UHGV virus genome: UHGV-0154029
From: a virus
Direction: 5' to 3' (one strand)
DNA length: 36,292 nt
In this document: positions 871 to 20,656 of the stretch, in pieces
Layout of the letters: each line of letters opens with the position of its first letter
How positions within the stretch are numbered: position 1 is the first letter of the stretch
Notes under the pieces: generated by a model
Told to the model about the DNA's origin: nothing
The model's database searches: none
The model's input: the letters and a program-made list of their open reading frames with translations, nothing else
Position numbers and translations under genes: made by a program

Positions 871-896
871 ATAAAAAAACCCAGCCGAAGCTGGGT
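871..896 (-). terminator. Intrinsic terminator downstream of ant-like gene
   Basis: Minus-strand hairpin ACCCAGC-TTCG-GCTGGGT followed by a run of 7 T. Confidence 0.6.
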
Positions 897-914
897 CGTT
901 GCGTTGGTTATCTG

Positions 915-1844
915 TCAGTAGTTATGTACTGAAGGAGGTAATTCTTTATTCTTAAGTCTCATCCATGCGGAAAGATTCGTTGGTCCTTCTGGCTCATTGA
1001 TATCAACATCTCGTGTGTGATTGATTAAAACGTCCCTCGCCATTCCGATAACATACGAGAACTCATGACCGTAGTCGTAGCATCTGCCGGAATAGTTCGA
1101 TTGAATTTGTTTTAATGCCGGATACAGTTCGCGGAATAATGCCTGTGAGCGGTTGGCATAATCCCATAACCATACAAGGCTGTTTGCTTCTTTTGCAGAA
1201 AGCTCGTTGGTTTTCTTCTCTTGTTTGCCAATGAACTCACCTTCAAGCGGAACGCGAGCAGCAAGTGACAGTGCTTCGGTAAACTGCTCCTCACTGATTT
1301 CTTTGTACGAACATCCAAAATGGGATTTCAGTGACGACCACATGGTGATCATCGCCTTAGCCTGTTTTTCTTTTGGCAGAGACTGACCGCGACTCATGAC
1401 GAGTTGTTTAATGGCTTCCTGCTGTTCAGTGGTGATTTTACCCGGCAACGCCTTTTTAGCTTTGCGTGGGTTAACTACATGGCCTTTAGTCCAGTACTCG
1501 TAGAGAACATCGTCACACTCTTCCTGATACTGGATTACCTTGTCGCGGATTTCAGGGCGAACTTTGTTAGGACTGATGGTTTGCAGCCAGCCAGCAAGTT
1601 TGCGAAGTGCCAAACAAATAATCTCACGGCACTGTTCATCACCAGGAAGCTGCATTGTGATTTTCACAATGCAGGTTTTAAACCGTTGCTTTATTTTCGT
1701 AAACTGTGAAGCCCAATCCATACCCATGCCTTCAACGATAGGTTTCATTGGGGTGTACGGTTCACCGTTGTGATTGACGACATAAAGCTCTGCGCCGTGG
1801 AATGGCACGTTGATAGTAGATACTGCTGTTGCTATACTTTTCAT
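915..1844 (-). CDS. ant: Putative antirepressor (Ant-like, immI position)
   Basis: 309-aa ORF directly downstream of the arc-like gene and upstream of the tailspike, the position of ant in P22; RBS GAGGAAAA upstream of ATG. Family assignment from sequence alone is uncertain. Confidence 0.55.
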
Positions 1845-1911
1845 GTCAGTTTTTCCTCAAAATTTACTGGCGATTTAAGCCCGAGCTACTCGCAATAGCT
1901 TGGGCTTTACT
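1845..1911 (+). ncRNA. Predicted sar-like antisense small RNA covering the ant RBS
   Basis: Plus-strand promoter TTGATA(1810-1815)-17 bp-TATACT(1833-1838) sits inside the ant 5' coding region; the transcript would be antisense to the ant start/RBS and run into a 10-bp-stem hairpin (1878-1907, GCCCGAGCTA...TAGCTTGGGC) followed by TTT. This is the arrangement of P22 sar. Confidence 0.35.
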
Positions 1912-2057
1912 CATTCTGGACAAACAATTCCATCCTTAGCTACTGACTCCTTTAGTCTCCTCAATACCTCATTACTGAACGACCGATCATCCTTTTTCGC
2001 GGACTGCTCCAAAGCCTTTTCTAGCCATTCTGGCATCCTTAATGTCTTAACTTTCAT
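1911..2057 (-). CDS. arc: Arc-like ribbon-helix-helix repressor (48 aa)
   Basis: Not in the ORF track (<60 aa). Minus-strand ORF MKVKTLRMPEWLEKALEQSAKKDDRSFSNEVLRRLKESVAKDGIVCPE with RBS AGGAG; RHH pattern resembling P22 Arc (RSxNSE motif region); immediately upstream of ant. Confidence 0.7.
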   Translation of the reverse strand: MKVKTLRMPEWLEKALEQSAKKDDRSFSNEVLRRLKESVAKDGIVCPE

Positions 2058-2161
2058 TTTTGCTCCTTTGTATGTGGTACGCATACATAGTATTTAGGTA
2101 CGCATTGATAGTCAATAGATACCTACATATCCTGTGGTAAATAATTATTCAGGATGCGCCG
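2058..2161. promoter_or_regulatory. Divergent promoter/operator region (Pant-like on minus strand, Pmnt-like on plus strand)
   Basis: Minus strand: TTGACT (plus 2110-2115) - 17 bp - TACTAT (plus 2087-2092) upstream of arc. Plus strand: TTGATA (2106-2111) - 17 bp - TATCCT upstream of mnt-like gene. Direct repeats GGTACGCAT (2075-2083 and 2098-2106) and palindrome ATTGATAGTCAAT are candidate Arc/Mnt operators. Confidence 0.55.
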
Positions 2162-2413
2162 ATGTCTGATCGTAAGTACAAAAACCCTCAAGTGAATCTG
2201 AGGCTTCCTGTAGAGATAAAGGAACGTCTTATTGAGCTGGCTGAGGCTAATTCTCGTTCATTAAATGCTGAGATGGTAGCAGCACTTGAGGCATGGACTG
2301 AAAAAAATAAACATATTCAAGCACTAGATATTGCAACTATAGCATCGCGGTTGATAGAGCTTGAGCATGAGGTTGAGAAGTTAAAATGTATGCATGGCAA
2401 CGGTGAAAAATGA
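2162..2413 (+). CDS. mnt: Mnt-like ribbon-helix-helix repressor (83 aa)
   Basis: N-terminus PQVNLRLPVEIKERLIELAEANSRSLNAEMVAAL has the RHH pattern of Arc/Mnt; the C-terminal half is predicted coiled coil as in Mnt; divergent from arc/ant as in P22 immI. Confidence 0.65.
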   Translation: MSDRKYKNPQVNLRLPVEIKERLIELAEANSRSLNAEMVAALEAWTEKNKHIQALDIATIASRLIELEHEVEKLKCMHGNGEK

Positions 2414-2727
2414 AACGCATCGCTATCCTATTGCTCCTGTGTCTCTCGAGCATAGCTAACGCAGAAACAAAATCAGACGATAGCAGTTTTGATGAAATAC
2501 AAGGCCTCATGATAGCTTCGAAAATGGCTGGTATGTGTGGTGCAATCAAACAAATGGCAATATTCCAAGAATCTACAAACATGCCGGGTGGGAATGAATT
2601 CTTACAGAGATTCCTTACTACAGAGCAAGCAAGGCTTGGGATGACTCCGCAGCAATTTCTTGAAGCATGTCAGAAATCAATCTCTATTTATACCACCTAT
2701 TACAATATGAGCTCTGAGAAAAAATAG
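2410..2727 (+). CDS. Secreted (signal-peptide) protein of unknown function, co-transcribed with mnt-like gene
   Basis: 105 aa; N-terminus MKRIAILLLLCLSSIANA is a classic Sec signal peptide with an AxA cleavage site; its start overlaps the mnt-like stop (ATGA). Confidence 0.6.
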   Translation: MKRIAILLLLCLSSIANAETKSDDSSFDEIQGLMIASKMAGMCGAIKQMAIFQESTNMPGGNEFLQRFLTTEQARLGMTPQQFLEACQKSISIYTTYYNMSSEKK

Positions 2728-2736
2728 ACTATGGTT

Positions 2737-2922
2737 TCAACAACTTCCGCGTCCCTGAGTAATTCTATTGCGGATTTGCTTCTTACGGTGGTTTAAGCTG
2801 GAGAGCTTGGCTTCTGCTTCTGATATTTGCGCATCAAGATCTTTAAGCTCAAGATCTGAAAGTCGCTGGTCAAGCAGGGTTTGGTTCAACTCAATGTTGT
2901 TCAGGCGTTCTTCTATGGTCAT
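2737..2922 (-). CDS. Small coiled-coil protein (61 aa), unknown function
   Basis: ORF with strong RBS AAGGAG 7 nt upstream of ATG; heptad-like sequence IEERLNNIELNQTLLDQRLSDLELKDLDAQISEAEAKL. Confidence 0.45.
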   Translation of the reverse strand: MTIEERLNNIELNQTLLDQRLSDLELKDLDAQISEAEAKLSSLNHRKKQIRNRITQGRGSC

Positions 2923-2934
2923 GATTACTCCTTA

Positions 2935-2958
2935 TAAAAAACCCACCTGACGGTGGGT
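2935..2958 (-). terminator. Intrinsic terminator downstream of lipoprotein gene
   Basis: Minus-strand hairpin CCCACC-GTCA-GGTGGG followed by TTTTTT. Confidence 0.6.
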
Positions 2959-2966
2959 TTCATTTC

Positions 2967-3398
2967 TTAATCTTGCTTTGTGGACGGTATAAGGGATGCG
3001 TTTGCCTCTTTTGGCTTCAAGGTATACATCCCACCATTAAATGGATCAACAGCAAGCCAACCAATTAACCCACCAAACACAAGGTTTCCACCAATATACC
3101 AACCATTAGCATTGGCTTTGATTGGCAGGGTAACTGGTTCGTACCCATCCTTTTCCATAGTGATCTGGTAACTCTTTTTGCCAAAATAACTACCATCTGA
3201 CTTGGCAAGAGTTACTCCTTGTGGGGTCTTACCTTGCGCAACAATCACGCCTGATTCGTCTTTTACCTTAAAGCTCGCACCGGAAGGATTGCTGTTCACT
3301 TGCACAAGCTGTGTTTCGTCACCAACAATAGTTGCGCACCCAGATAACATGATAGCGCCAGCAACGACGCTAATAATCCTCTTCATATCAATTTCCAT
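2967..3398 (-). CDS. Lipoprotein (lipobox LSGC), moron at the P22 sieA position; candidate superinfection-exclusion factor
   Basis: ORF MEIDMKRIISVVAGAIMLSGCATIV...: signal peptide plus lipobox L-S-G-C; the true start may be the second Met (3386). Located between the gp16-like ejection gene and the immI module. Confidence 0.7.
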   Translation of the reverse strand: MEIDMKRIISVVAGAIMLSGCATIVGDETQLVQVNSNPSGASFKVKDESGVIVAQGKTPQGVTLAKSDGSYFGKKSYQITMEKDGYEPVTLPIKANANGWYIGGNLVFGGLIGWLAVDPFNGGMYTLKPKEANASLIPSTKQD

Positions 3399-3481
3399 AT
3401 CTAAAAAACCGGAAACATCCTAATGACAAACCATTCAAATGTGAAGCACGAGATAAGATCAATCCATCCGTGGACGACTAA

Positions 3482-5641
3482 TTACTCCTGTGTCATTCCG
3501 CTTAGCGATGCCACAATCCCAGCCCTCGACAAACGCTGGAACTCTTCGTTTCCTAGTGCATCGCGAATTGCTTTTACGGCGGCCTTATTTGCCATAAATC
3601 TGCGTTCCGCCGCCGCTAATGCTTCTTTGCTTCCGCCTGCTCTTACTGCTTTGGTGGCTTCCTGAACAGCTTTCTCTATCGCATATCGACCACTACGTGT
3701 GGTGGCAATTTTAGATACAGCGCCTTTTAACCCAGCGCCAACTAAAGCACCCGCGGCAGCGCCTGCAATGCCCCCTCCAGCGCCACCAACAATGGCACCT
3801 GATGTTGAGTTGGCAATTGCATTTAACACTGTTGATGTGACGTTGGATAAACCAGCATCCAGATCGCGTAGTACATTGGCAGTTCTCCCTGTTCTTTCAA
3901 TATACTGCTGAGGTTTCACTGCCGCTCTTGCAAGAGTGCCATATGCATCAGCAATTCTTCCAAGTTCTGAGGAATATCTGCTAATGGCTTTTACATTTTG
4001 TGGGGTAAGTATCCCTGCGATATGGTTAATTCCTGCTGCATCAGATTTGCCACCACGTACACCATGCGAGATAGCATCCTGCAACATTGATGATATAGCA
4101 GGAACACGCTCTGATTCTGGCAGCGCGCGGATCATAGAATGGAATCCGGCAGGACCATTAAGACCTTTAGCTGACGATGATTGAAGAGATTTTACTCCAT
4201 TCGTAATCAGTGCATCTGTTGCCAAATCACGCCCAAAAACAGACTCTGCACTCTCTTGTGCGGATAGCCTCGCTTTAGACAGATCATTAGCTTTTTGCCA
4301 GTCATCAAAAAATCCGCCGTTTTCCGCCATTGTGCGCATATCATCAGTAATTGCCCGACGTATTTCCCCTGCTCTCCTTGCCGCATTTGCCTCTCCGCTA
4401 CGCTTATATTTTTGCTCCGCATCAGCAAATTTCGCTCTCCATGCTTTCATGCCATCAAATGTTACTCCACCTTGATTGTTTGCCTGAACAAACTGTTTCA
4501 TTTCAGGAGTAAGCGGTATGCCAGCAGATCGCTCTGCCTGAATAACGGCATTACCATTTAGCATTCTTGCTTTTTGATTTGGCATTGTTGACCGCACGTC
4601 ATCCCATGCCGCGCGCTCAGCATCCTTCATCTGATCAAGATGTTGGAGAATCCTTTGTTTTATAGCCGCACTTTTTTCTGATGCCGTTCCAGATGCGGCC
4701 CCAAATTCATCAAGGTTTCGACTTAACTTTGATGATATTTCGTTAAATGCTGCCTGATGGGCATCCTGAACAATCCCTGGTGTTGATGCCAATGCGCCTT
4801 CGGCTTGTGCAATTCCACGACTTCCAGATCGCATTCCTGGTGTTAATGCGTTTATATCAATTCCAGCAGACTCAGCCGCTTTTGCTACATCTTCGGAGAC
4901 ATTAGCGGCCTGACTGGCAATTGACTGACGCCCGGCACCTGACTTTGCCATCCTGGAAACATCATTAGCAGAATTCAGTGCTGCACCACCAAGAGCCTGT
5001 GAAACCCTTGGCGCAATAACGCGCCCGACACCTGAAAGAACGCCTTGAGCACCAATATTGATACCACCGTTAATGGCAGCATTTTGTGCAAAATCACCCT
5101 CCTGATTTGCAGCATCAGCAAGAGAACCGGCAATCATGTTTCCTGCGGAACCGATATCTCCAGCGAGCTTTGCTGTCGCTCCAGCAGCTTTTGCCGCTGT
5201 GCCAATTGGCAGGAGATACCCACCAATTGTTTCACCGGCTTGCGCGTAAGGATCTGTCGGTCGGTCGACTGGACGATAGACATCATCCAATACTTTTGGC
5301 CCACCAAGCCCCTGACTGATTGCATTAATCAGACTTGCGCCACCCTGCAATACGTCAAATGGTATGTTTACCAGACCACGACCAGCCTGTTCTGCAATTT
5401 GCCCTGCACTTTGACCACCTGTGAGCCAATCGCCAGCTTGTTGCATCAATGATGGTTCTTCTTTCTGCTGCTGAGGCGGAGGGTATGCTGCATAAAACTG
5501 ATCTCTTGCTTCAGCCCATTTGTCACCAGCCTTAGGGGCAACAACCTCATCAAAATATTGCGCTTGAGCCTGTGCTTTCTGTTCTTCAGTTAACGCCTGA
5601 TACTGTGGAGAGGCGATAACATCTTTCCATGCTTTAGCCAT
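3482..5641 (-). CDS. Ejection/injection protein, P22 gp16-like (719 aa, enlarged)
   Basis: Position directly after the gp20 homolog in conserved P22 order; Ala/Gly-rich segments. Longer than P22 gp16 as I recall it (about 609 aa). Confidence 0.7.
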
Positions 5642-20500: not shown

Positions 20501-20576
20501 TGGTGCTGGTTAACGGACTTGAACCGCTACCCATTCGCTTACAAGGCGACTGCTCTACCATTGGAGCTAAACCAGC
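20501..20576 (-). tRNA. tRNA, anticodon UGU (Thr) by manual folding
   Basis: Minus-strand 76-nt sequence GCTGGTT-TA-GCTC-CAATGGTA-GAGC-A-GTCGC-CTTGTAA-GCGAA-TGGGT-AGCGG-TTCAAGT-CCGTT-AACCAGC-A-CCA: perfect 7-bp acceptor stem, D and T arms, encoded CCA. Confidence 0.65.
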
Positions 20577-20581
20577 ATATT

Positions 20582-20656
20582 TGGCGGGACAGCGTGGACT
20601 CGAACCACGATAAGAAGGTTAACAGCCTTCCGTAATGACCTTTATACGACTGACCC
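20582..20656 (-). tRNA. tRNA-like gene, anticodon GUU (Asn) by manual folding; possibly degenerate
   Basis: Minus-strand 75 nt GGGTCAG...GAAGG-CTGTTAA-CCTTC-...CGTGG-TTCGAGT-CCACG-CTGTCCC-G-CCA: good T arm and anticodon arm, but a U-U mismatch in the acceptor stem and a weak D stem. Confidence 0.45.

Follow-up and report, generated by a model that had tools for sequence, protein, structure and literature searches.

The spacer between the arc-like and ant-like genes of a P22-like prophage raises the question of whether its opposite strand encodes a short antisense RNA of the sar type that limits synthesis of the antirepressor. In phage P22, sar represses Ant by base-pairing with the ant mRNA (PMC13397905; PMC5415839). 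Both sar and the immI region have been known since the 1980s (for P22 sar: Liao et al. 1987, Wu et al. 1987 and Schaefer & McClure 1997, as cited in PMC2629481); annotations of sar exist for further P22-like phages (PMC2629481), and immI and sar are present in many phages of this group (PMC2629481; PMC12111858). The window analyzed here is the whole stretch of 36,292 nucleotides of the viral genome UHGV-0154029, for which an original prediction, made from the letters of the DNA, had proposed an antisense RNA against the ant leader. Our analysis indicates that this interval is very probably a diverged allele of P22 sar, located in the immI region of an E. coli P22-like prophage and blocking Ant translation.

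The immI locus and the putative sar promoter

In silico analysis of the window identified the following features in and around the arc-ant spacer:

878..897, minus strand: terminator-like hairpin with a T-run, past ant; the P22 ant terminator lies at the equivalent place
915..1844, minus strand: ant-like antirepressor gene, 309 aa (Pfam P22_AR_N 1e-44 and P22_AR_C 5e-30; PHROG anti-repressor Ant)
1810-1815, plus strand: -35 hexamer TTGATA of the putative sar promoter (Psar), 5/6 matches, within ant codons 10-12
1830-1838, plus strand: extended -10 element TGcTATACT of Psar, the complement of ant codons 3-5 (AGT-ATA-GCA)
1845-1911, plus strand: predicted sar-like antisense RNA, ~67 nt, 5' end at G1845 and 3' end at ~1908-1914
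1845-1871, plus strand: hairpin I, 6-bp stem (1845-1850 / 1866-1871) and 15-nt loop
1858..1854, minus strand: ant Shine-Dalgarno GAGGA, serving the AUG at 1844..1842
1877-1907, plus strand: hairpin II, presumed sar terminator, 12-bp stem (1877-1888 / 1896-1907) and 7-nt loop
1911..2057, minus strand: arc-like gene, 48 aa (MKVKTL...), Pfam Arc 1.6e-5
2087..2115, minus strand: Pant-like promoter TTGACT-17-TACTAT, 9/12, predicted to drive arc-ant and convergent with Psar
2162..2413, plus strand: mnt-like repressor gene, 83 aa, Pfam Arc 3e-10, divergent from arc

The order of the Ant, Arc and Mnt genes was that of P22. Upstream lies the gene for a gp16-like DNA transfer protein and downstream that for the tailspike, late genes on the minus strand; the location of the Pant-like promoter agreed with that of P22 Pant. 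The partner proteins have diverged from those of P22 (Arc 31% and Ant 58% identical), and the mnt-like product was 47% identical to P22 Mnt across the ribbon-helix-helix part. The ATG of arc at 2057 is preceded at 6 nt by AAGGAG; a longer arc start at 2084 was rejected for want of a ribosome-binding site and because of its position at or upstream of the Pant start. By gene content and order, the locus is a complete P22-type immI region, i.e., the same cassette as in epsilon34, CUS-3 and SEN22, which is the 'ant moron' of PMC2629481. The window represents a Lederbergvirus-type, P22-like E. coli prophage, whereas the host of P22 is Salmonella. Its nearest deposited phages were CUS-3 and Salmonella phage SEN22. 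Of 5,426 complete E. coli genomes, 29 matched the region 1760-2170 with an identity of 99% or more, and 35 covered no less than 80% of it; E. coli ST131 strain 4993 (NZ_CP103557) was 99.8% identical to the window over 1762-2170.

Several other elements of the prophage were noted. Imperfect palindromes at 2091-2108/2112-2129 and 2066-2074/2082-2090 overlap the Pant-like (minus strand) and Pmnt-like (plus strand) promoters; these palindromes (2066-2129) probably serve as operators for Arc and Mnt in this type of immI, with a sequence unlike that of the P22 operators. Beside immI lie two moron-type ORFs of unknown function (2410-2727 on the plus strand and 2967-3398 on the minus strand), one of which encodes a signal-peptide-like N-terminus (phrog_19844); the product of the other has a lipobox LSGC (phrog_6823) and faintly resembles the Cor superinfection-exclusion family. 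Adjacent minus-strand tRNA genes, tRNA-Thr (tgt) and tRNA-Asn (gtt), were found at 20501-20656.

The original prediction had placed a plus-strand TTGATA-17-TATACT promoter within the first ant codons, and the motif was present as described: it occupies codons 3-12 of the ant-like ORF (915..1844, minus strand), has a spacer of 17 nt, a -10 TATACT at 1833-1838 and an extended -10 TG at 1830-1831, and scored 10/12 in a scan for the sigma-70 consensus. A scan of all 36,292 bases on both strands returned Psar alone at 10/12 or better. First-order Markov simulations of the window gave a mean of 6.5 such sites, or 0.46 with the TG; strong sigma-70-like sites are depleted in the window (1 vs 6.5 expected), and the sole one is Psar. 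The predicted start of the RNA, G1845, lies 7 nt past the -10 element and adjoins the complement of the ant ATG (1844..1842). The -10 element is identical to that of P22 and stands at an equal distance from CAT. The two phages differ at the -35, which is TTGATA in the window and GTGTTA in P22, and by our own count the consensus matches amount to 10/12 and 8/12, respectively. The better hexamer is in register because the window ant has two codons fewer than that of P22.

Given that Psar lies within coding sequence, its conservation has to be read against that of the Ant protein. Across 33 distinct homologous sequences, ant codons 3-5 were AGT, ATA (TTA or GTA in three) and GCA, and no synonymous variant was seen at these codons among the 33; in the same set, codons 6-40 showed synonymous variation at almost every degenerate codon, and codon 11 (ATC, within the -35) was invariant. 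The Ile codon ATA is rare in E. coli. The element TTGCTATACT was retained in nearly all alleles, its variants TAAACT, TACACT and TAAATT preserving TA...T, and the amino-acid changes at codon 4 likewise preserved the -10 as TA...T. Psar thus appears to be conserved more than the Ant protein requires, and constraints on translation initiation could partly account for the conserved 5' codons of ant. The activity of Psar is predicted from its motif and this conservation.

The predicted RNA and its relation to P22 sar

Promoter geometry predicts a transcript of about 67 nt (1845-1911), in line with the 65-70 nt that had been proposed, and the predicted sar fills the 66-nt arc-ant spacer on the strand opposite to the two genes. 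Folding of 1845-1911, which the original prediction had put forward as a check, gave two hairpins with an energy of -24.8 kcal/mol (z = -5.9), and 0 of 200 shuffled sequences were as stable. Hairpin I, absent from that prediction, carries in its loop the sequence UCCUC (1854-1858), which is the complement of GAGGA, the Shine-Dalgarno of ant. The hairpin that had been proposed for the spacer is hairpin II; its stem comprises 12 bp rather than the 10 bp first given, contains one G-U pair and is followed by UACUCAUU. T residues had been expected after the stem, and some are there, although they are few (UACUCAUUCU past the terminal UU of the stem); hairpin II was passed over by a generic terminator scan that required 5 or more T in 8. 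With this poor U-tract, termination after hairpin II may be leaky, and termination is the weakest step of the sar proposal. The U-tract of the P22 sar terminator, with which hairpin II aligns, is equally poor (CAACUUUA). Two plus-strand ORFs in this interval (1770..1898 and 1829..1939) were rejected as genes, because they only run across ant and the spacer and lack any support.

Complementarity to both the ribosome-binding site and the start codon of ant had been part of the original prediction as well. The first part stood, and the second is probably a slight overstatement, the 3-nt AUG (1844..1842) adjoining G1845: because the RNA is predicted to start at G1845, with the same geometry as annotated P22 sar, it probably stops short of the ant AUG. 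A small-RNA survey of P22 gave a 104-nt sar locus that extends beyond the hairpin and starts AUUCAUG (PMC13397905), and by analogy the ends of the RNA may be heterogeneous here too, with partial coverage of the ant AUG.

The P22 GenBank record BK000583 annotates sar, its promoter and its terminator at equivalent positions: P22 sar begins beside the ant ATG and extends into the arc stop codon, overlapping its final two bases, with the promoter inside the opening codons of ant and the second hairpin as terminator. In the window, the arc stop codon (1913..1911) adjoins the predicted 3' end. Common to both elements are an antisense position between arc and ant, TGcTATACT in ant codons 3-5, a 5' end at the ant AUG, a 3' end at the arc stop, a length of ~67-69 nt, an anti-Shine-Dalgarno sequence in the first loop and a second stem of the type GAAGCCC...GGGCUUC. 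The window sar is ~67% identical to P22 sar, and the inner half and loop of hairpin II have been replaced, with compensatory changes. In a four-way alignment of the window, P22, SEN22 and CUS-3, TTGCTATACT..TCATGT was invariant; the SEN22 allele is the nearest one in a deposited phage (90% identical to the window sar).

In a search of the whole window at Rfam gathering thresholds, sar was not reported and the only hits were two tRNAs. A permissive Rfam search of 1700-2200, in contrast, gave one significant match, which was sar (RF00262): model positions 1-68 of 68 aligned with 1845-1911 on the plus strand at 29.3 bits and E = 6.9e-4, an E-value that refers to 501 nt against 4227 families and becomes roughly 1e-5 when rescaled to one family over the whole window. 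The match begins and ends exactly where the promoter and the arc stop codon would place the RNA. Since the gathering score of RF00262 is 43 bits, the window element falls below the curated cut-off. Scores at the equivalent locus, however, form a graded series from 98 down to 28 bits:

P22: 97.8 bits
CUS-3-type alleles: 82-86 bits
loci L016, L069 and L055: 70, 60 and 55 bits
TL-2011b type (L024): 44.8 bits
SEN22: 32.4 bits
window type: 29.3 bits
L029, L028 and L073: 28-30 bits

The CUS-3-type and P22-type alleles thus pass the threshold (45-98 bits), whereas the window/SEN22, L028 and L073 types do not (28-32 bits), and five further allele types gave no RF00262 match at E <= 1. The sub-threshold score concerns the curated cut-off and not the biology that defines sar. 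A sar feature was unannotated in two RefSeq E. coli records, one with a window-type and one with a CUS-3-type allele; since it is missing from the CUS-3-type record too, its absence is uninformative about the window allele. That the element mirrors P22 sar, as had been proposed, is supported by the end-to-end RF00262 alignment, the P22 gene order, the BK000583 annotation and the invariant stretch of the four-way alignment; the element is a homologue of P22 sar, beyond a similar layout.

For a comparative test of the two helices, 80 viral-contig loci were gathered by similarity to Ant residues 1-130, with peptide patterns that excluded codons 1-11. These loci comprised ~38 distinct upstream sequences of roughly a dozen sequence types, and the identical two-hairpin architecture was obtained in 18 of the 18 representative alleles folded. 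A plain MAFFT alignment misaligned hairpin I, and RNAalifold run on it returned only 8 pairs of hairpin II; it was replaced by a structure-anchored alignment with N padding and later by a model-based one. In the structure-anchored alignment 97.6% of cells were paired and 6 of 14 pairs had changed on both sides. The model-based alignment of 43 distinct alleles had 98.7% of cells paired, against 38-54% with a slid partner, and changes on both sides in 51 cells, against 10 in shuffles, with 0 of 500 shuffles matching the observed both-side count or covariation score. Among these 43 alleles, the five outer pairs counted for hairpin I were paired in 100% of cells, with both-side changes in two pairs, and hairpin II was paired in 97.9% of cells, with both-side changes in four, so that six pairs in total over both helices carried compensatory changes. 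Although structural alignments are fitted to per-sequence folds or to a model, and pairing is favored in them, the slid controls and the many exchanges of G-C for A-U make both helices hard to dismiss.

We also built a covariance model (R1) from the structure-anchored alignment, with 18 training rows that included the window sequence. R1 gave a single match in the window, at 1845-1914 with 47.4 bits (the window being 1 of the 18 training rows). Of the 80 loci, which had been gathered by Ant protein similarity only, 78 contained one R1 site, located at the start of ant; it also matched Pectobacterium, Xenorhabdus, Hafnia, Citrobacter and Pluralibacter loci outside the training set. When species-representative genomes were scanned for the exact pattern of the window-type hairpin II, nothing was returned. 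A generic 16-base Psar/ATG pattern returned at least 120 stretches, most of them in unrelated phyla and probably matched by chance; five had an Ant-like N-terminal reading, of which four also fold into the two hairpins, and R1 matched a further three from Enterobacterales.

Mode of action and competing explanations

By analogy with P22, the RNA most likely blocks translation of the antirepressor. In the mechanism we propose, the sigma-70 promoter in the first 12 ant codons would fire on the plus strand at about G1845, and transcription would cross the arc-ant spacer and end at hairpin II by the arc stop codon, yielding a product of ~67 nt. This cis-encoded RNA would be perfectly complementary to the ant leader, and its 5' hairpin loop would offer UCCUC to the ant Shine-Dalgarno; first contact would probably be made through this exposed loop, and pairing would then mask the ant ribosome-binding site and reduce Ant translation. 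Such a translational brake would be needed because late transcripts cross arc and ant and thereby escape Arc/Mnt control at Pant. Within the late operon, ant precedes the tailspike gene, and arc and ant are described as being transcribed from P-late too, with sar linked to that transcript (PMC12111858).

Comparable arrangements are known from lambda OOP, directed against cII, and P22 sas, directed against sieB, which are likewise short, constitutive, terminator-ended antisense RNAs in post-transcriptional control of a developmental regulator (PMC5415839), although sar has no sequence relation to either. OOP overlaps cII at the 3' end and favors the decay of its mRNA (PMC5415839), whereas sar covers the ribosome-binding site; OOP is reported to work through RNase III, according to the title of Krinke & Wulff 1987 as cited in PMC3134472.

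An active Psar could also act mainly by transcriptional interference, the short RNA being a by-product, if polymerases starting at 1845 collided with or blocked minus-strand ones coming from Pant or the late promoter. Psar and Pant are indeed convergent and ~240 bp apart, and the weak U-tract suggests read-through into arc; Liao et al. reportedly found in 1987 that Pant activity interferes with Psar in P22. Interference alone, however, requires neither two compensated hairpins nor an anti-Shine-Dalgarno loop, and the P22 RNA is described as base-pairing with the ant mRNA (PMC13397905); we regard this explanation as improbable. Hairpin II might instead be an element of the sense arc-ant mRNA (an attenuator, a processing site or a stabilizer), with the plus-strand promoter match arising from conserved Ant N-terminal codons, and it does form on both strands and sits exactly between the two cistrons. 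Against this highly improbable reading, the stem on the minus strand is followed by AAAUCGCC without a U-run, and the structure is better on the sar strand, because the G-U pairs of the plus strand (G1883-U1901, and a U-G in hairpin I) are A-C mismatches on the minus strand. Coding constraint on the Ant N-terminus also fits poorly with a -10 that is preserved despite an amino-acid change and without synonymous change, and the same -10 with its MSSIA codons is fused to an unrelated Bro-N antirepressor in Xenorhabdus.

That the element is a decayed, non-functional sar remnant in a defective prophage seems scarcely credible, even though its Rfam score is low and prophages often decay. The ant, arc and mnt genes are intact ORFs, the promoter is nearer to consensus than that of P22 (10/12 vs 8/12), several viral contigs and no fewer than 35 complete E. 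coli genomes carry a near-identical allele, and the sister alleles of L029 and SEN22 differ from it by compensatory changes. The reading as a diverged sar allele that limits Ant translation draws on what was computed here, namely a conserved promoter motif, a two-hairpin fold with covariation, the Rfam sar homology and the P22 gene order; production of the RNA, its 3' end and repression of Ant would be as in P22, whose experiments are the sole source for these three points.

What is new here is a sequence-diverged member of sar that the curated Rfam threshold excludes, a real but ordinary addition. Taken alone it matters little, as an E. coli P22-like prophage would simply keep the classic three-layer control of the antirepressor by Mnt, Arc and sar. 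Its value is one of annotation, since the window allele and several others lie under the Rfam sar threshold or escape the model entirely, and a broader sar model would recover sar-type cassettes in many Enterobacterales prophages.

Allele diversity at the ant leader

The diversity of the alleles raises a testable question, namely whether sar gives allele-specific protection from the antirepressor of a superinfecting phage. At least a dozen alleles may share a common promoter, length and two-hairpin shape while differing in sequence and being swapped through recombination at the ant ATG, and the cassette may be joined to unrelated antirepressor families (P22_AR_N, and Bro-N in Xenorhabdus). On this basis the sar/ant-leader spacer could be a hypervariable specificity cassette that, if sar acts in trans, adds allele-specific RNA immunity on top of Mnt, a speculative idea that we consider rather unlikely. 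Were it true, with the resident sar acting in trans, each allele would silence only the Ant of incoming phages with the same leader, and the window would carry one allele that Rfam does not recognize. The idea fits the data because identical Ant N-termini occur with different sar alleles, and because of a Bro-N fusion and tandem matches in Xenorhabdus, as set out below.

In a comparison of L004 with L005, L021 and L036 (1100-1260 of each), the Ant N-termini were 97-100% identical to that of the window and the sar/leader alleles were quite different, the sequence switch falling right at the ant ATG. This points to a putative recombination joint at the ant ATG, which would fit the 'boundary sequence' bsq2 annotated in CUS-3.

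In L067 and L068 (~1130-1260), which encode a relative of the Ant N-terminus (81% identical), neither the Psar -10 nor a sar-like match was found; the reading frame appears to extend upstream, a sign that the gene may be a fusion or begin elsewhere. In L085 (E. coli PMV-1, CUS-3-type), RefSeq annotates an Arc-family CDS at 1549-1689, ~260 nt upstream of ant, and extra sequence separates the sar allele from arc, whereas a 2008 paper on epsilon34 described CUS-3-type morons as being without arc.

In L109 (Xenorhabdus beddingii, 1473-4056), the Psar -10 and the MSSIA codons head a Bro-N antirepressor and not a P22_AR_N one. This locus has three tandem sar-like matches (2295-2365, 2921-2996 and 3985-4056), which adjoin Arc-family genes, a truncated ant start and a KilA-N/ANT gene, and by this arrangement the sar cassette looks portable between antirepressor families.
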